Shown here one piece after another: positions 6,511-15,857 of a stretch of DNA of 38,758 nt (the first letter of the stretch is position 1; the number at the start of each line of letters is the position of its first letter). The DNA is from a virus (Duplodnaviria; Heunggongvirae; Uroviricota; Caudoviricetes), in the IMG/VR virus record IMGVR_UViG_2541047683_000001. One strand, 5' to 3'. Made by a program: the position numbers and the translations under genes. The notes under the pieces were generated by a model that was not told where the DNA came from, did not search any database, and saw nothing but the letters and a program-made list of their open reading frames with translations.

Positions 6511-7364
6511 GCACCATCCTGAAATGGGCGGGAAATAAAACCGCCATTATGTCCGAACTGAAAAAACACCTTCCTGCTGGCCCGCGACTGGTTGAACCTT
6601 TCGCGGGTTCCTGTGCTGTGATGATGGAGACGGATTACCCCAGCTATCTGGTTGCGGATATTAATCCTGATTTAATCAACCTCTATAAAAAGGTTGCCGC
6701 TGATTGTGAATCGTTTATATCTCGCGCCAGAATTTTATTTGAGAACGCAAACAGGGAGATGGATTATTACAACATAAGGCAGGAGTTTAATTACTCGACT
6801 GAAATTACTGATTTCATGAAAGCGGTATATTTCCTGTATCTCAATCGTCATGGTTACCGTGGGTTATGTCGCTATAACAAGAGCGGGCATTTCAACATTC
6901 CCTACGGGAATTATAAAAATCCGTATTTCCCTGAAAAAGAAATTCGCAAATTTGCAGAAAAAGCCCAACGAGCAACGTTTATCTGCGCCAGCTTTGATGA
7001 AACGCTGGCGATGCTGCAGGTGGGGGATGTGGTGTATTGCGATCCGCCGTATGACGGTACGTTTTCCGGCTATCACACTGATGGTTTCACTGAAGATGAC
7101 CAGTATCACCTGGCATCCGTTCTTGAACATCGGTCATCAGAAGGACATCCGGTCATTGTTTCTAACAGTGATACATCCCTGATCCGTTCGCTGTATCGCA
7201 ATTTTACTCACCACTACATCAAGGCAAAACGCAGCATCGGTGTAGCAGCTGGTGAGAGTAAATCTGCAACAGAAATCATCGCTGTTTCCGGGCCGCGCTG
7301 CTGGGTGGGATTTGATCCTTCGCGTGGCGTGGATAGTTCTGCCGTGTACGGAGTGCGTGCATGA
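6507..7364 (+). CDS. DNA adenine methyltransferase (Dam family, orphan)
   Basis: N-terminal KWAGNK motif and catalytic DPPY ([10 protein letters not shown]); ATG 6507 overlaps TraR stop; GGAGG RBS. Confidence 0.9.
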
Positions 7365-9775
7365 GCCATGCTGATATGAACAACTGCAGCGGCTTTAACG
7401 AGGTCGCCGCAGCATTCTCATGGAACAGCCCGAAAAAGGCCATTAACCCTTATCTGGACCCGGCGGAAGTTGCGCCGGTTTCTGCGCTTTCAAACCTGAT
7501 CACTCTGTACGCTACTGATAACGAGCAGGAACAACTGCGCCGCGAGGCACTGAGTGATCAGGTCTGGGAGCGTTATTTCTTTAATGAATCCCGTGATCCT
7601 GTCCAACGCGAAATGGAGCAGGATAAGCTCATTAGCCGGGCAAAGATGGCGCATGAGCAGCAGCGTTTTAATCCGGACATGGTCATTCTGGCCGACGTCA
7701 ACGCCCAGCCTTCCCATATCAGCAAGCCGCTGATGCAACGTATTGAATATTTCAGCAACCTGGGCAGGCCAAAGGCTTATTCCCGCTATTTGCGTGAGAC
7801 GATTAAGCCATGTCTGGAACGACTGGAGCATGTACGCGACAGCCAGCTATCTGCATCTTTTCGTTTTATGGCAAGCCATGAAGGGCTGGACGGTCTGCTG
7901 ATCCTGCCTGAAATGAGTCAGGATCAGGTGAAACGCCTGTCTACCCTTGTCGCTGCGCATATGAGCATGTGTCTTGATGCCGCTTGTGGTGATTTGTACG
8001 CCTCCGATGATGTTAAGCCAGAAGAAATCCGCAAGACATGGGAAAAGGTGGCTGCAGAAACCCTGCGACTGGATGTCATACCGCCTGCGTTTGAGCAACT
8101 CCGCCGGAAAAGAAACCGCCGCAAACCTGTGCCCTATGAACTCATTCCGGGTTCGCTGGCGCGTATGCTGTGCGCCGACTGGTGGTATCGGAAATTATGG
8201 AAGATGCGTTGCGAATGGCGGGAAGAGCAGTTGCGTGCTGTCTGCCTGGTCAGCAAAAAAGCATCTCCCTATGTCAGCTATGAAGCCGTGATGCATAAAC
8301 GTGAGCAGCGCCGTAAGTCGCTGGAGTTTTTCCGTTCTCATGAACTGGTGAACGAAGACGGCGACACGCTGAACATGGAGGATGTGGTAAACGCCAGCAG
8401 CAGCAACCCGGCGCATCGCCGCAATGAGATGATGGCCTGTGTTAAAGGCCTGGAGCTTATCGCGGAAATGCGTGGTGACTGCGCCGTTTTTTACACTATC
8501 ACCTGTCCGTCACGTTTCCATTCCACGCTAAATAACGGCAGGCCAAACCCGACCTGGACCAACGCGACAGTAAGACAAAGCAGCGATTATCTGGTCGGCA
8601 TGTTTGCTGCATTTCGTAAGGCTATGCACAAAGCCGGGTTGCGCTGGTATGGCGTGCGGGTGGCTGAGCCGCATCATGACGGCACAGTTCACTGGCACCT
8701 GTTGTGTTTCATGCGCAAAAAAGACCGCCGCGCCATTACTGCATTGTTGCGTAAGTTTGCCATCCGTGAAGACCGCGAGGAGCTGGGCAATAACACGGGG
8801 CCACGCTTTAAGTCTGAGCTGATAAACCCGCGCAAAGGAACGCCGACAAGCTACATTGCGAAATATATCAGTAAGAATATTGACGGGCGTGGTCTGGCTG
8901 GCGAGATCAGTAAGGAAACGGGTAAATCCCTGCGTGATAACGCTGAATACGTTAATGCCTGGGCGTCTCTGCATCGTGTTCAGCAATTCCGCTTCTTTGG
9001 CATTCCGGGGCGTCAGGCTTACCGTGAACTGCGATTGCTGGCTGGTCAGGCGGCAAGGCAACAGGGTGACAAAAAAGCAGGTGCGCCGGTACTGGATAAC
9101 CCGCGCCTTGATGCCATCCTGGCTGCTGCTGATGCTGGTTGTTTTGCCACCTACATCATGAAGCAGGGCGGCGTACTGGTTCCCCGCAAATATCACCTCA
9201 TCAGAACCGCTTATGAAATCAACGAAGAGCCAACCGCCTATGGCGATCACGGTATTCGTATTTATGGCATCTGGTCACCCATTGCAGAGGGCAAGATCTG
9301 CACTCATGCAGTGAAGTGGAAAATGGTTCGTAAGGCCGTTGACGTTCAGGAGGCGGCAGCCGACCAGGGCGCTTGCGCCCCTTGGACTCGTGGCAATAAC
9401 TGTCCCCTTGCTGAAAATTTGAACCAACAAGGGAAAGACAAATCAGCTGATGGGGATACCAGGACGGACATTACCCGCATGGATGACAAGGAGTTGCACG
9501 ATTACCTGCACAGTATGAGCAAAAAAGAGCGCCGGGAACTGGCAGCAAGGTTACGCCTTGTGAAACCGAAACGGCGTAAAGACTACAAACAGCGAATTAC
9601 AGATCATCAGCGACAGCAGCTCGTGTATGAACTGAAGTCCAGGGGATTTGATGGCAGCGAGAAAGAGGTCGATTTACTGCTTCGCGGCGGCAGTATTCCA
9701 TCAGGAGCAGGCCTGCGTATCTTCTATCGGAACCAGCGTTTGCAGGAAGATGATAAGTGGCGAAACCTGTATTAA
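7361..9775 (+). CDS. A: replication initiation protein (P2 gpA / 186 RepA-like rolling-circle initiator)
   Basis: 804-aa ORF; HWHLLCF HUH-type motif and YIAKYISKN tyrosine motif; ATGA overlap with dam stop. Confidence 0.9.
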
Positions 9776-9869
9776 TTACGCGGGTTAACAATTCGTGCTC
9801 TTAATAATACCAGGCATATCAGGCTGATGAGCATAAAAAAACGTTTTACATCAGTAAGATTATTATATA

Positions 9870-9885
9870 CTGTAAATATAAACAG
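9870..9885. promoter_or_regulatory. LexA box CTGTAAATATAAACAG overlapping a candidate promoter
   Basis: Perfect CTGT-N8-ACAG with AT-rich spacer (TACTGTAAATATAAACAGTG), about 45 bp upstream of the ATG at 9928; weaker half-site follows. Confidence 0.7.
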
Positions 9886-9927
9886 TGGTTATGTATACAG
9901 TATTGCTTTGGTGTCATAGGAGGAAAG

Positions 9928-10116
9928 ATGCAGGACTATTTTTTGGAGTCTTTGAAGCTCCAGCGCATTGATTTTTTTCTTAAGCTTGTAGCGGCTAGTG
10001 AGTGTAGTGATGAAGAGAAGGGGCTGGCCCTGCAGTGGGTTTCTGAACTGACAGATGAACTTATGGCAAAAATCAGAACCCACGAATACAATCGCTCAAT
10101 GGATGTCATCAGCTGA
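9928..10116 (+). CDS. hypothetical small protein, first gene of putative SOS-controlled operon
   Basis: 62-aa ORF with AGGAGG RBS 4 nt upstream, downstream of LexA box. Confidence 0.55.
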   Translation: MQDYFLESLKLQRIDFFLKLVAASECSDEEKGLALQWVSELTDELMAKIRTHEYNRSMDVIS

Positions 10117-10126
10117 GGTGACCTTT

Positions 10127-10360
10127 ATGCGCATTGAAATAATGATCGATAAAGAGCAGAAGATTAGCCAGTCTACCCTGGACGCCCTTGAATCCGAGCT
10201 TTACCGCAATCTGCGCCCCCTGTATCCCAAAACGGTAATTCGCATCCGCAAAGGTAGCTCTAACGGTGTGGAACTGACCGGACTGCAACTGGACGAAGAA
10301 AGAAAACAAGTGATGAAAATTATGCAGAAGGTGTGGGAAGACGACAGCTGGCTGCATTAA
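10127..10360 (+). CDS. DinI-like damage-inducible protein
   Basis: 77 aa MRIEIMIDKEQKIS...VWEDDSWLH, DinI-like from N- to C-terminus; GAGGTG RBS; track ORF 10055 has an upstream extension without RBS. Confidence 0.75.
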   Translation: MRIEIMIDKEQKISQSTLDALESELYRNLRPLYPKTVIRIRKGSSNGVELTGLQLDEERKQVMKIMQKVWEDDSWLH

Positions 10361-10519
10361 GAAAAGTTGCTGGCGTCTGAACTTGGTTCTGGCGTCAGCA
10401 AGGTTGAACAACGAGTACAGTGAGGCGTTAGGTGTGGCGTTTATTTGATGAGTGAACGCCCGTTCTGCGACAGGTTCGGAGATTAAGGTTGAAACTACGG
10501 GCAAAATACCATCTTTTTC

Positions 10520-10945
10520 CTACTTAATTGAGTCCAGTAACAAGTTACAGTTACTCTCATTGTAGAGAGAACGAGCAATTAGTGTTACCTGCTTTCCATT
10601 CATTCCCGGCTTATCCCATAACACAGCTTCTTGCGACGCCACAAATTCAGCATAATCAATTATGCGTTGTTCGTGATCTGGTTCCTCATAGCCAAAGTAT
10701 GAGAGCGCATCGTTGTAAGCGTGGTAAGCTGCTTTCTGTAATATCTTGATATCGGCTGTAGGTACTTGCTCCGTGTAGCTAGGATCTAATTGTGTGCTAC
10801 TGCCATAGAATGCACATGAAAGGTAAGATATTGATTTCTGTTGAGCTTTAGTTCCTTTCTCATAGTTTTTAGCTGTTACCGCCTGAACTGGGACGCTAAC
10901 AAAGCTTGCAACCAGAATTAAAATTAATACGTAAAAGCTTTTCAT
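10520..10945 (-). CDS. hypothetical secreted protein (moron-like cargo)
   Basis: N-terminal Sec signal peptide MKSFYVLILILVASFVSVPVQA; GAGG RBS; visibly AT-rich; opposite strand to neighbours. Confidence 0.65.
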   Translation of the reverse strand: MKSFYVLILILVASFVSVPVQAVTAKNYEKGTKAQQKSISYLSCAFYGSSTQLDPSYTEQVPTADIKILQKAAYHAYNDALSYFGYEEPDHEQRIIDYAEFVASQEAVLWDKPGMNGKQVTLIARSLYNESNCNLLLDSIK

Positions 10946-11218
10946 TTTGACCTCAGCCGAAACGTTAGAGAGACTATCGAAATTTGTAAAACCCGTGGCG
11001 ATTCAGTTTGAGATCCTCCCCCTTACATGATTTTTAATCAAATATATGCTTTTGTAAGCATACCTGTTAACCGAATTATTTATTTTTAGAGATCTTCCGA
11101 CATACTGATTATGCCCGCTGAGGAGTTCACCTTGCGTAAAGTCCGATTCGCTTTACTCGTCTGTGCATGTCTATGCTGCATGAGATTGCATGATCGTTTG
11201 AGGATCGTTTTTGCTAAG

Positions 11219-11243
11219 GCCCGCCAGAACTGGCGGGCTTTTG
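11219..11243 (+). terminator. rho-independent terminator-like hairpin
   Basis: GCCCGCC(agaact)GGCGGGC followed by TTTTG. Confidence 0.5.
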
Positions 11244-11287
11244 CGTAGATCATGCACCTGCATGAAAACCACTACATAAAGCGGGCA

Positions 11288-11306
11288 GGCGTGGCGGGGA
11301 TACGAG
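11288..11306. other. cos: candidate cos cohesive-end site GGCGTGGCGGGGATACGAG
   Basis: First 13 nt match my recollection of the P2/186 19-nt cohesive end (GGCG.GGCGGGGA...); lies between A and Q as expected; recollection of the cos sequence is uncertain. Confidence 0.3.
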
Positions 11307-11382
11307 CGCGCGGTTTGACTGAAAAGTTATGATAAATCACAATTAGGTCTAGTTAGCATTTTTTCTTTTCATGGAGACAACT

Positions 11383-11883
11383 ATGGAACAGGATTATATA
11401 GATCGTGGCTTTGGTTTATGGTCAAAACCTGGTGTCCCGCGTAAGGGATGGGTAAACGTAGGAGTGGAAGACCTAGAAGAAAGTCGAAAAATTTGTGATA
11501 TGTGTGGGAAAACAGAGATAAGGTATGTCCACATAATGTCACATGAGAATTACCCAGATTACTTAGAGGTAGGGTGCATATGCGCTGGTCACTTGGAGAA
11601 TGATTATGATTCTCCAAGAAAACGAGAAAGTGAAATTAAAAGTCGATCAGCCAAAAGAAAAAGATGGTGTAACTTACCTTGGAAAATATCTAAAAAAAAT
11701 CAATTTTACATAAAAAAAGATGGATATAGCATCATCATTCTCGACAAGGGTGATTATTTTATGGGAATGATAGTTGACGAGAGAACGCAAATTAAATATT
11801 GGACTAGAGAATGTAAAGATACTAACGAGGCGAAATTACTTTCATTCGATAGAATAACAGCGCTAATGGCAAGCTCTAAATAA
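11383..11883 (+). CDS. zinc-ribbon-like protein, first gene of a two-gene accessory cassette
   Basis: ATG 11383 with GGAGA upstream (track ORF starts 11371); cysteine cluster CDMCGK...VGCICAGH; lysine/arginine-rich tail; AT-rich. Confidence 0.65.
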   Translation: MEQDYIDRGFGLWSKPGVPRKGWVNVGVEDLEESRKICDMCGKTEIRYVHIMSHENYPDYLEVGCICAGHLENDYDSPRKRESEIKSRSAKRKRWCNLPWKISKKNQFYIKKDGYSIIILDKGDYFMGMIVDERTQIKYWTRECKDTNEAKLLSFDRITALMASSK

Positions 11884-11899
11884 TTTTAGGATTAATTAA

Positions 11900-13030
11900 A
11901 TGTATAATGTTGTATTGGATACAAACATACTCCATGCGGAAGGTATTCACTCACGAGGTATGGCAACTCTTAAAAAGTTAATAGATGAAGGCATTGTTAA
12001 AGTTCATTTGCCTGAACTAGTCGTGAGAGAATTTTCCACGAAAAAAATCACCGTAATAAATGAAGCCTATAATAAGGCGATTAATATTTTAAGAGGCACT
12101 GAACGCGAAGCAAGAGGATCCGAAGAGTCGATACTGCGAGATATTGATGAACTAAAAAACATCATAGACGACAAAGTGAAAGTACTTGATGAAAAAATTA
12201 ATGGTGCAGTTAGGCAATGGATTCAGGATTTTCGAATAAATATTATCCCGTTACATAGTGAATTTACATCAACTGTTTTTGAGAACTATTTTTGTGGCAA
12301 TGGTGTTTTTAAATCGAAAAAATCAAGAGAAGACATACCAGATGCTTTCATTAGCCTCAGTATCGAAAAGTTGCATGATGAAGTCGGTGAATTAATGGTT
12401 GTACTCAAGGATGCGTTGTTTAGAAAGCATTTGTCTGGCTTGGATGGGGTAAAAGTTTATGATAGCTTAGATGAACTTTTCCAATTGCCTAACATTAGAG
12501 CCAGTTTAGAAAATGAAGCCGCATCCTCTTTTTTGACATCAAGTTTATTCAGAACAGCGTTAGAAAACTTCTTACAGCAGAAACCGAATTATTTCGAAGG
12601 ATTCTATCTTGAGATTACTGAGGGAACAGAACTGCTTGCTGATTGGGTTATTGGTGCACATACCGAAATCAACGATTATGGACAAGTAAAGGATATTACA
12701 ATAAGTGATGTAATCAGAAAATCTGAAAGTAACTATTCAGCAAAAATTTCTTTTAAATTGGACTCTAATATCTCTTATGTAACGGATTACGGTGAAGTGC
12801 TTAAAATAGAGAGAGATAAAAACAGAAGCGCGGATTGTTGGAGTATGACAGGTGATGGCATGTGCGATCTTAATGAAAATGTGAATTTAACCTTGGAAGG
12901 TGACTTAAGTATTACCTTTCAAGGTGATTTCAATACATTGAAAAAAGAAGAATCCGAAACTTATTTGAATGAAAATGTTATTGTTATGACAATAAGTTTA
13001 TATGAGGCTATTATAGACAAAGTTCTTTGA
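11900..13030 (+). CDS. PIN-like domain protein, second gene of the cassette
   Basis: 376 aa; N-terminus MYNVVLDTNIL typical of PIN-fold first acidic residue, later EDIPDAF; AGGA RBS; 17 bp after upstream gene; AT-rich. Confidence 0.7.
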   Translation: MYNVVLDTNILHAEGIHSRGMATLKKLIDEGIVKVHLPELVVREFSTKKITVINEAYNKAINILRGTEREARGSEESILRDIDELKNIIDDKVKVLDEKINGAVRQWIQDFRINIIPLHSEFTSTVFENYFCGNGVFKSKKSREDIPDAFISLSIEKLHDEVGELMVVLKDALFRKHLSGLDGVKVYDSLDELFQLPNIRASLENEAASSFLTSSLFRTALENFLQQKPNYFEGFYLEITEGTELLADWVIGAHTEINDYGQVKDITISDVIRKSESNYSAKISFKLDSNISYVTDYGEVLKIERDKNRSADCWSMTGDGMCDLNENVNLTLEGDLSITFQGDFNTLKKEESETYLNENVIVMTISLYEAIIDKVL

Positions 13031-13033
13031 TTT

Positions 13034-13060
13034 AAAAGAGGCGGTTTTTCGCCTCTTTTT
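13034..13060. terminator. bidirectional rho-independent terminator between PIN-like gene and portal gene
   Basis: AAAGAGGCG(gttttt)CGCCTCTTTTT with A-run upstream and T-run downstream. Confidence 0.7.
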
Positions 13061-13065
13061 ATTAT

Positions 13066-14094
13066 CTAAATAGTGTAATTCCCAAATTTTATTATTTCAA
13101 TATCTGCCCAATTATTTAATTCTGTTAATCTTTTCTGCAGTGGTGATAGTTCATTACGCACAAATACATTTGCGGCCTTCTCCACATCCCCAAATCCTCC
13201 AACATTATTAGGCATAATCCCCATCATTTGCGGCGGCACGCGGTGCGCAGCCATCATGTCGTCGCGGCTGACATTTTTGATATTCAGAAATTCATCCTTC
13301 GCCGCGACTTCTGACAACGGGATAATCTGAAGACCATCCTTTTTGCCGTTAGGTGAGTACATAAACAGGTTGCGGAAGTTGCCTGGACCTTTGGCGCTTT
13401 TCATCGCATTGCGGAGGTTGTTCACATCCTCCTGGTTCTGCGCGGCATCGGTCATGTACATGATGAAGCCTGCATGACTGCCGTTAATGTAATACTTCCG
13501 GCGGAACAGCGTGGCGGACTCGTTGAGCAGGGCTGACGGAATGGCAGAAAGATAGCCGGGCAGGCCGTAGATCTCCTGGTTAATGTCCGGTTCCATCAGA
13601 TGAAAAATGCTGCCTTTCGTGAACTGATACGGCTGGGTTGTCATACCGTATTGCACAAACCAGTAGGTATCCAGGTCTAACCCGCGTCGGGTGTATTTTG
13701 CCAGAGCAGGCTCAAGGGCGATAACTTCACCGAAGCGGTTCGTGCGTTTCTCCAGGTAGGCGTTACCAAATACCAGATAGTCCTGCACAAAACGTGAAAA
13801 AGCCTGCTGGCTGAGCAGCGGGTGAGGGATGTAGGTACTGGTCAGAATGTTGCATTTCACCGCAATTGGTGAACTGTGATGCACGGCAGCGCGGAAGGTG
13901 CGCGCCAGTCCGTCAAAGCTTACTGGCGGTTCATACCAGCGATCTGTCTGTACGCATTCCACATAGTCCAGCAGTTCACGGCGGTCCAGAACAGGAACGG
14001 GATCGCCAAAGCTGAATGTTTCGGCTGAAGTCTGGCTTTTATGCTGAATCTGGGGCGTCGACGCAGTGCGGCTCTTCTTACTCTTTCCCATCAA
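13066..14094 (-). CDS. Q: portal protein (P2 gpQ-like)
   Basis: 342-aa ORF upstream-adjacent to terminase in P2 order; P2 gpQ-like sequence and length. Confidence 0.9.
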   Translation of the reverse strand: MMGKSKKSRTASTPQIQHKSQTSAETFSFGDPVPVLDRRELLDYVECVQTDRWYEPPVSFDGLARTFRAAVHHSSPIAVKCNILTSTYIPHPLLSQQAFSRFVQDYLVFGNAYLEKRTNRFGEVIALEPALAKYTRRGLDLDTYWFVQYGMTTQPYQFTKGSIFHLMEPDINQEIYGLPGYLSAIPSALLNESATLFRRKYYINGSHAGFIMYMTDAAQNQEDVNNLRNAMKSAKGPGNFRNLFMYSPNGKKDGLQIIPLSEVAAKDEFLNIKNVSRDDMMAAHRVPPQMMGIMPNNVGGFGDVEKAANVFVRNELSPLQKRLTELNNWADIEIIKFGNYTI

Positions 14095-15857
14095 AAAATC
14101 TCCACAATATTGCTGGTATTGGCGGACTCGCCCTGCAGCGGTTCGTTAAACAGTGCGTGCATTGTTGCCCAGGCCAGATCGGCATGGCTGGCTTCTTCGC
14201 TGCGGCTGGCTTCATAGGTTGGGCGGTTGCCGCTGGCGGTGGTGGCGCGACGGATTGCCATAAATGACTGCGCTATGTCGGTGTGTCCGGCGTCAAACTC
14301 CAGACGACGGTGACTGATAATGTCGTAGGCCTTGAGTACCAGGGCGTTTTTAACGTTGGGGTTGTAGACAAACTCCCGGACGGCTGGAAAAAACGCTTTC
14401 ACGTTCTCGTAAACCCCGTGGCCGACACCTGTCGAGTCGATGCCGATGTAGGTCACGTTGTATTGCTCGGTCAGTTTTTTGATGGCGTCAGCCTGGGCGC
14501 GGAAGTCCATCCCGCGCCACTGGTGACGCTCAAGAATGCGGAACTTACCGCCCGGCACGGCTGGCGGTGCCACCACCACGCACCCGGCGCTGTCGCCGTT
14601 TTGCGTACCTTTTGCCGGGTCATAACCGATCCACACTTCGCGCCAGCCAAACGGGCGCAGGGCCAGTGCATGAAAGTCGGTCCAGACTTCCCAGCTGTCC
14701 ACCATGCACGCCTGCAGTTCGCTGAGCGGGAACACGGACGCGAGATCGTCCACGAACTCGCACATCAGCAGGTTCTGGTATTCGTCCGGGCTGTACTCCA
14801 TGCGTAGCTGGTCGAGGTCGAACAGGTTACAGCCGCCGCGCACCGCATCTTCCACGGTGACTATCTGGCGGTATTGCCCGTCTGCGCACAGCAGGCCGGG
14901 GGCCAAATTGCTGTGGGACAGGTCGATGTCCACCTTGTCAGCTTTGTTGCGTCCACGGTTGAACAGCGCACCGGACCAGAACGGATAAGCACTGTGGGTC
15001 AGGCTGGATGGCGTGGAAAAATAGGTTTGTCGCCATTTTTTGTGAATAGCCATCCCGGAAGCCACTTTGCGCAGCTCCTGGAATTTCGGTATCCAGAAAT
15101 ATTCATCCAGATACAGGTTGCCGTGATAACTCTGGGCCGTGCGGGCATTGGTGCCGAGGAAGTAAAGCGTGGCTCCGTTAGGAAGCACCATCGGATCGCC
15201 TTTTAGCTCCACCTCGACTTCTTTGGCGAAGTCGATGATGTATTGTTTAAAGACGTGGGCCTGAGCCTTACTGGCAGAAAGGAAAATCTGGTTACGTCCG
15301 GTAAGCAGGGCGTCAATCAGGGCTTCACGGGCAAAATAGAAGGTCGCGCCGATCTGGCGTGACTTCAGCAGGTTGCGGATGCGGTTGGTTTTTCCGGCTT
15401 CCCACCAGTGGCGCTGGTAGTTGAACATGGAGGAATGGAAGATTTCTTCCAGCTTCTCAATCTGCTCATCGGTGAAAACATTCTTTTCCGGCTGACGGCG
15501 TGGGCCTTTATTGCGGTTGGCGACGTTAGGGTTTAAGTCGGCTTCGTTGCCGCCATTGTTAAACTTGCCGATCCGCGCGTGGCGCTCAGACTGGCGCGCC
15601 AGCAGGTCAATCTCTTTGAAATCTTTCCCTTCTTTGTGCTCCTTCATAATGAGCTGGCAGTAGCGTGCGGCGGTGGTGAGCTGCATCTGATCCAGCGGCC
15701 CATAGTCACCCCACTTGTCGCGTTTTTTCCAGCTGTGAACGGTTGCAACTTTCTCGCCCAGCATTTCAGCAATGCGGGCTACGCGGTATCCCTGAAAGTA
15801 CAGCAGCATGGCCTGCCGACGGGGATCGAGATCTGCGGGTGTCAGTGTGGTGTTCAT
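14091..15857 (-). CDS. P: terminase large (ATPase) subunit (P2 gpP-like)
   Basis: 588-aa ORF; P2 gpP-like length and sequence; overlaps Q start. Confidence 0.95.
   Translation of the reverse strand: MNTTLTPADLDPRRQAMLLYFQGYRVARIAEMLGEKVATVHSWKKRDKWGDYGPLDQMQLTTAARYCQLIMKEHKEGKDFKEIDLLARQSERHARIGKFNNGGNEADLNPNVANRNKGPRRQPEKNVFTDEQIEKLEEIFHSSMFNYQRHWWEAGKTNRIRNLLKSRQIGATFYFAREALIDALLTGRNQIFLSASKAQAHVFKQYIIDFAKEVEVELKGDPMVLPNGATLYFLGTNARTAQSYHGNLYLDEYFWIPKFQELRKVASGMAIHKKWRQTYFSTPSSLTHSAYPFWSGALFNRGRNKADKVDIDLSHSNLAPGLLCADGQYRQIVTVEDAVRGGCNLFDLDQLRMEYSPDEYQNLLMCEFVDDLASVFPLSELQACMVDSWEVWTDFHALALRPFGWREVWIGYDPAKGTQNGDSAGCVVVAPPAVPGGKFRILERHQWRGMDFRAQADAIKKLTEQYNVTYIGIDSTGVGHGVYENVKAFFPAVREFVYNPNVKNALVLKAYDIISHRRLEFDAGHTDIAQSFMAIRRATTASGNRPTYEASRSEEASHADLAWATMHALFNEPLQGESANTSNIVEIF

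Follow-up and report, generated by a model that had tools for sequence, protein, structure and literature searches.

An AT-rich two-gene cassette in a P2-like prophage matches the anti-phage system DS-5 and pairs a PIN_12 nuclease with a predicted zinc-binding protein

Introduction

What does an AT-rich pair of genes do between the replication gene A and the portal gene Q of a P2-like prophage, and had it been seen before? The question is raised by a viral sequence of 38,758 nucleotides (IMG/VR record IMGVR_UViG_2541047683_000001, Caudoviricetes), referred to below as the window, in which two genes on the same strand, gene 1 and gene 2, form a compact cassette. A sequence-only reading of this DNA had presented the pair as an unrecognised two-gene cassette in an accessory hotspot known for anti-phage cargo. 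Our analysis here leads us to conclude that the cassette is almost certainly the two-gene anti-phage system DS-5. As a discovery it is already known, named and experimentally validated. We read DS-5 as a system in which the PIN nuclease encoded by gene 2 is the effector and gene 1 supplies a cofactor for it, and we put the probability of this explanation as a whole at about 0.6.

Results

String comparison of the two translations with the sequences printed in the supplement of the DefensePredictor study (Science 2026, PMC13092281) found 166 of 166 residues of gene 1 identical to WP_021513008.1 and 376 of 376 residues of gene 2 identical to WP_021513009.1, and the 1,648 bp spanned by the cassette equal the cds_start-cds_end interval of DS-5 in Table S6 of that study. 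Its authors cloned NZ_QOYG01000008.1 68231-69878 under the working id PN12, which Table S6 marks as defensive and names DS-5. The same pair is listed in Rousset et al. 2022 (PMC9122126), where WP_021513008 and WP_021513009 ('hypothetical + PIN_12') appear seven times among the P2-hotspot gene arrangements; the DS-5 source contig NZ_QOYG01000008 is in their P2-hotspot table, with the same neighbour genes as the window. Rousset and colleagues catalogue the pair, and we found no sign that they tested it. The description of the pair as unrecognised is refuted by these two sources. Both came to light through supplements, as a search for the accessions in the main texts of papers gave no match. DS-5 and the cassette are thus the same system, with no difference in sequence; the paper gives a phenotype without a mechanism, and what the present analysis adds to it is the placement between a cos-like core and Q, the relatives of gene 2 that lack gene 1, and a large, modular gene 1 family with many enzyme partners.

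At E up to 1 neither protein has a hit in PADLOC-DB v2.0.0, whose models cover Tin, Old and the systems of Rousset and of Vassallo, and neither has a significant match in NCBIfam or PHROGs. A 2026 preprint on the P2/P4 hotspot describes the new systems Bandua, Aernus, Toga, Reve, Crouga and Hailong, with PIN_12 in none of them. In supplementary file 6 of Rousset 2022 (PMC9122126) one DS-5 arrangement also carries a KAP_NTPase gene, and the same file places other PIN_12 proteins, WP_000920989 and WP_000920990, in the P2 hotspot of E. coli, in some cases behind a hypothetical gene and in others not.

The expectation that this slot holds anti-phage cargo is borne out by the identity with DS-5 together with its published phenotype. 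With DS-5, the efficiency of plating of phage Bas60 fell 10^3.7-, 10^6.5- and 10^5.6-fold (PMC13092281, supplementary data). Deletion of gene 1 left 0.78 and 0.32 log of protection against this phage, and the substitutions D7A and E44A in gene 2 left 0.26 and 0.43 log, respectively (PMC13092281). D7A is the very mutation of the aspartate in the LDTNIL motif that had been proposed from the sequence, and it abolished defence. The main text of the paper states that both components are essential and that DS-5 is not a toxin-antitoxin pair, and reports no toxicity upon loss of gene 1 (PMC13092281).

This last observation bears directly on the reading of the cassette as a type II toxin-antitoxin module of the VapBC kind, in which gene 1 would encode an antitoxin that keeps the PIN toxin in check until a phage infects. 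The arrangement invites such a view: the nuclease gene is tightly coupled to a small gene upstream of it, its PIN active site has the acidic residues of VapC, and VapC is among the best structural matches of gene 2. Yet deletion of gene 1 was harmless while defence was lost, and DS-5 is therefore not a toxin-antitoxin pair (PMC13092281); on the basis of this deletion, gene 1 acts positively and not as an antitoxin. Moreover, homologues of gene 2 persist without gene 1, relatives of gene 1 partner dozens of unrelated proteins, and gene 2, with its extra domains, is roughly three times as large as VapC. We regard a toxin-antitoxin origin of the phenotype as very improbable.

Gene 2 itself is, as judged from its sequence and predicted structure, a catalytically intact PIN_12 nuclease with an additional C-terminal beta-rich domain. 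It scores 64.4 bits against Pfam PIN_12 (PF16289; cutoff 32, E 2.2e-17, residues 4-162), residues D7, E44, D148 and D171 are invariant in 32 homologues, and the predicted structure contains the PIN fold, all of which confirm the PIN-like signature first noticed at its N-terminus. A helical insertion occupies residues 39-110 and the C-terminal domain residues ~230-376. This layout agrees with the description of PIN_12/DUF4935 proteins as having an N-terminal VapC-type PIN domain with a long helical insert and a C-terminal alpha/beta region of unknown fold, at ~350-380 residues in total (PMC5499597). For that family Matelska et al. 2017 gave a usually monocistronic organisation and no known function (PMC5499597), whereas here its member sits in a two-gene operon with a demonstrated role in defence. 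Given the intact active site seen here and the loss of defence in the catalytic mutants (PMC13092281), the PIN nuclease is very probably the effector of DS-5.

Gene 1 encodes a predicted zinc-binding protein in which two beta-beta-beta-alpha lobes are joined by a basic helix (AlphaFold2 model, predicted local distance difference test 93). Across 62 family members C38, C41, C67, H50, H54, W13, W23, W95 and W100 are invariant, and at least 90% of the members have C65; the CxxC...CxC cluster seen in the raw sequence is therefore real and conserved. The 'basic tail' reported alongside it is in fact the central basic helix, at residues ~76-96, and the open reading frame, found where it had been placed, is one residue shorter than the 167 given. 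Both genes have their own ribosome-binding sites, as had been said: GGAGA lies 6 nt before the ATG at 11383 of gene 1 (an alternative ATG at 11371 has no Shine-Dalgarno sequence) and AGGA precedes the ATG of gene 2, although the spacer between the two co-oriented genes is 16 nt rather than 17. A fold search with gene 1 gave no significant match, and no Pfam, PADLOC, NCBIfam or PHROG family covers it. The published annotation assigns gene 1 a DUF5830 domain (PF19148; HHpred probability 0.91, residues 33-75) and an AcrIF4-like domain (PMC13092281). By hmmscan, a different method from the HHpred used in the paper, none of the 62 family members matches DUF5830 at E up to 1, and we found no similarity of gene 1 to AcrIF4 in structure or sequence, so that this label was not reproduced here.

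The linkage of the two genes extends beyond near-identical copies. The pair recurs at 86% identity in two loci (L099 and L100 in our numbering) and in a diverged lineage (L008 and L009), in which identity is down to 63% for gene 1 and 38% for gene 2 and the stop codon runs straight into the start codon as TAAATG. On the metagenomic contig of L008 (1882-6690) the diverged pair is followed by a truncated portal gene, and beyond the portal gene lie two unannotated genes, a gene for a 758-residue HATPase_c_3 protein and an N6_Mtase gene; the whole may be a stacked defence island. Retention of the pair across such deep divergence, with abutting codons, and the ablation of defence by gene 1 deletion (PMC13092281) speak against the idea that the two genes are independent neighbours, gene 1 being separate cargo such as the anti-defence protein that its AcrIF4-like label might suggest. 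In favour of that idea, each gene does occur without the other, the paper itself noted an AcrIF4-like domain, and DefensePredictor gave gene 1 a log-odds of only 0.9 against 10.0 for gene 2 (PMC13092281). On balance we judge independence improbable, and both it and the toxin-antitoxin reading are largely excluded.

Relatives of gene 1 are far more widely distributed than the cassette. The family comprises 2,647 clusters at 50% identity, and at 43 of 57 family loci a co-oriented neighbour lies within 150 bp. The 45 downstream partners fall into 35 clusters, nearly all different, with Pfam assignments that include PIN_12, pP_pnuc, NYN, AAA_15 with an OLD-like Toprim, DUF2130, RlaP, DUF6710, DUF3223, type I S subunits and SF1 helicases, among others. 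Genes for helix-turn-helix (HTH) plus Peptidase_M78 proteins, divergent WYL regulators, ADP-ribosylglycohydrolase, DUF4917/SIR2, Mrr and HsdM/HsdS recur upstream, and PADLOC recognises among the operon partners RmrA (8 members), CapH (5), CapP (5), HamC/DUF3223 (3), type I specificity subunits and PDC-S21. Fusion proteins occur as well, in which the module is joined to UvrD-like helicases, N-terminally in P0179, P0183 and P0190 and C-terminally in L086, L093, L094, P0290 and P0293, or to RNase H in P0180. These neighbours and fusions argue that gene 1 is a portable module that would act directly with nucleic-acid enzymes in defence contexts.

Further details of these loci deserve mention. In one C-terminal helicase fusion a weak PcrA/UvrD Tudor match precedes the gene 1 module. 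RosmerTA-type (RmrA) or CapH/CapP-type HTH + M78 regulators, or divergent WYL regulators, are found at L043, L047, L051, L053, L059, L017, L020, L063, L071 and others, where the companions include Mrr, SIR2/DUF4917 (PADLOC PDC-S21) and a 625-residue ADP-ribosylglycohydrolase protein. Thus relatives of gene 1 elsewhere sit in RosmerTA and CapH/CapP-regulated operons, whereas no regulator of this kind is present in the window, and no PADLOC model recognises gene 1 itself.

The cofactor role of gene 1 has to be weighed against several observations that do not favour it. Relatives of gene 2 that are 38-48% identical occur without gene 1 in nine groups of loci; 14 of the 57 gene 1 family loci lack a co-oriented partner in the 150 bp to either side; and the 'essential' status of gene 1 rests on one deletion (PMC13092281). 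The lone gene 2 homologues are found in Klebsiella islands with a DUF927 primase (with the same cos core and a Q remnant), in P4-like satellites beside an alpha primase, in a Cronobacter chromosomal remnant, in Alteromonas beside a Metallophos-nSTAND gene and in a Glaciecola defence island, and tblastn with 62 family queries found no trace of gene 1 at any of them. Hence a PIN_12 protein may in general need no gene 1. Upstream of some lone copies lie gene-free stretches of 560-770 bp (L104 3328-4001, L106 1-557, L107 3278-4001), for which a promoter, a leader or an RNA are options; we rejected an overlooked gene 1 in these stretches, which contain neither a tblastn match to the 62 queries nor a suitable open reading frame.

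Such observations would fit a complete, self-inhibited single-protein defence in gene 2, with gene 1 no more than a DNA-binding regulator of its expression, or with a polar effect of the published deletion. Lone homologues occupy the same slot between cos and a Q remnant, each behind an AT-rich region of its own, 122-147 bp long, DUF4935 genes are described as usually monocistronic (PMC5499597), and the sole promoter-like site of reasonable match lies upstream of gene 1. Nevertheless, fusion of the gene 1 module to helicases and RNase H fits a partner of enzymes better than a transcription factor, in many relatives the module is the last gene of an operon that already holds an HTH-M78 or WYL regulator, and the published system has two essential components (PMC13092281). 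We therefore consider a self-sufficient gene 2 unlikely, and retain the reading in which gene 1 is a cofactor of the nuclease.

The setting of the cassette was resolved by comparison with P2 and related elements (Table 1). The window carries a P2-like prophage with gene A at 7361-9775 (+), portal gene Q at 13066-14094 (-) and terminase gene P at 14091-15857 (-), a gene layout in agreement with the one that RefSeq annotates at an E. coli locus of 99.9% identity. Near-identical DNA is present in only 5 of 5,426 complete E. coli genomes, every time in this slot; it is absent from the phage records searched, gene 2 is absent from all phage records, and a relative of gene 1 occurs in only 4 of 50,697. 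Of the first 13 bases of the cos-like core, 12 match P2 cosL as annotated in AF063097, and the core lies within a ~150-bp unannotated segment (window 11163-11326) that is kept in 90 P2-like phage records. A GC-rich hairpin with a T run (GCCCGCCAG..CTGGCGGGCTTTT, ~11219-11243) stands just upstream of it. In P2 (AF063097) nothing but 167 bp and the terminator tQ lies between cos and the stop codon of Q, and the sequence comparison places the cassette in this gap, which it fills on the Q side of the cos-like core. The same core is found upstream of gene 1 in the paired loci L008, L009, L099 and L100, and 147 bp upstream of the lone gene 2 homologue in the Klebsiella islands L002 and L005. Placing the cassette between A and Q, as had been done, was correct, but its position is more specific. 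On the P2 map, tin and old lie on the A side of cos. Tin and Old have no sequence relation to the cassette, which lies on the Q side, although they and other cos-proximal cargo of P2 and P4 occupy the same variable region between gpA and gpQ (PMC9122126).

Table 1. Features of the cassette and of the slot that holds it (window coordinates)
Feature	Position	Strand	Remarks
cos-like core GGCGTGGCGGGGATACGAGCGCGCG	11288..11312	not assigned	putative packaging site; left boundary of cargo slot
Promoter-like TTGACT-17-CACAAT	11315..11343	+	upstream of gene 1; 9/12 consensus matches, weak, as the site count equals the shuffle expectation
Gene 1	11383..11883	+	WP_021513008.1, 166 residues; predicted zinc-binding, two beta-beta-beta-alpha lobes; required for defence (PMC13092281)
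Gene 2	11900..13030	+	WP_021513009.1, 376 residues; PIN_12/DUF4935 nuclease
Intrinsic terminator	13034..13059	+	11-bp stem then T run; position of P2 tQ; closes cassette
Q 3' end	13066..13380	-	right boundary and recombination arm of cargo slot; low GC enters

GC content is 0.30-0.38 over 11450-13250 against 0.52-0.60 in A and Q/P, a profile that confirms the AT-rich island and its extension into the last codons, and more broadly the 3' end, of Q. Window positions 13091-13379 (~290 bp) share 72-78% identity with the DNA downstream of lone gene 2 in L002, L005, L097 and L104, where only remnants of the Q 3' end of 62-169 residues are found (at 9169-9429 in L002/L005, with the cos core at 7854, at 9230-9733 in L097 and at 5280-5465 in L104). 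P2-like phages and satellite-like islands thus appear to exchange the unit formed by cos, cargo and the 3' end of Q through homologous recombination, and such exchange would explain the AT-rich composition that runs into Q. The terminator that closes the cassette had been called strong and bidirectional; it is there, but was called only on the + strand, with only four T after the stem on the - strand. Over 9700-13400 Rfam detected no RNA family. On the A side of the hotspot (9928-10945) the window carries a 62-residue open reading frame at 9928-10116, a DinI-like gene at ~10127-10360 and, on the minus strand at 10520-10945, a gene for a 141-residue protein (WP_000834899) with a signal-peptide-like N-terminus.

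Discussion

Using a combination of sequence comparison, structure prediction and published genetics, our work connects a cassette in a P2-like prophage with DS-5 and outlines how its two proteins might cooperate. We suggest that gene 1 would recognise a nucleic acid or nucleoprotein complex specific to infection, and would then license or target an otherwise quiescent PIN nuclease, perhaps via the C-terminal domain of gene 2. The licensed nuclease would degrade RNA, or possibly DNA, and phage replication would stop. That gene 1 works in this way, as a nucleic-acid-binding sensor or adaptor rather than as an expression factor, is a proposal to which we give somewhat less than even odds.

More tentative still is the extension of this proposal to the family as a whole, in which gene 1 would define a large unnamed family of zinc-binding nucleic-acid sensor or adaptor modules plugged into many defence effectors. 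In DS-5 the effector would be PIN_12, and elsewhere NYN, pP_pnuc, OLD-like and Mrr proteins, SIR2/DUF4917, UvrD-like helicases and RNase H.

Among known systems, DS-3 (PMC13092281) offers a functional parallel, being likewise anti-phage, dependent on PIN catalysis and devoid of an antitoxin. It consists of a single protein with a split PIN domain, which its authors regard as not closely related to DS-5 (PMC13092281), whereas DS-5 needs a second protein.

In DS-5 a PIN nuclease thus depends on a second protein that is not an antitoxin, and comparison of this system with the natural versions that carry gene 2 only in the slot between cos and Q provides a handle on what keeps a PIN nuclease silent and how infection triggers its activation. 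If the modular view of gene 1 is true, DS-5 would be the first experimentally tractable example of its kind, and the target of gene 1 during Bas60 infection would explain the whole modular class.
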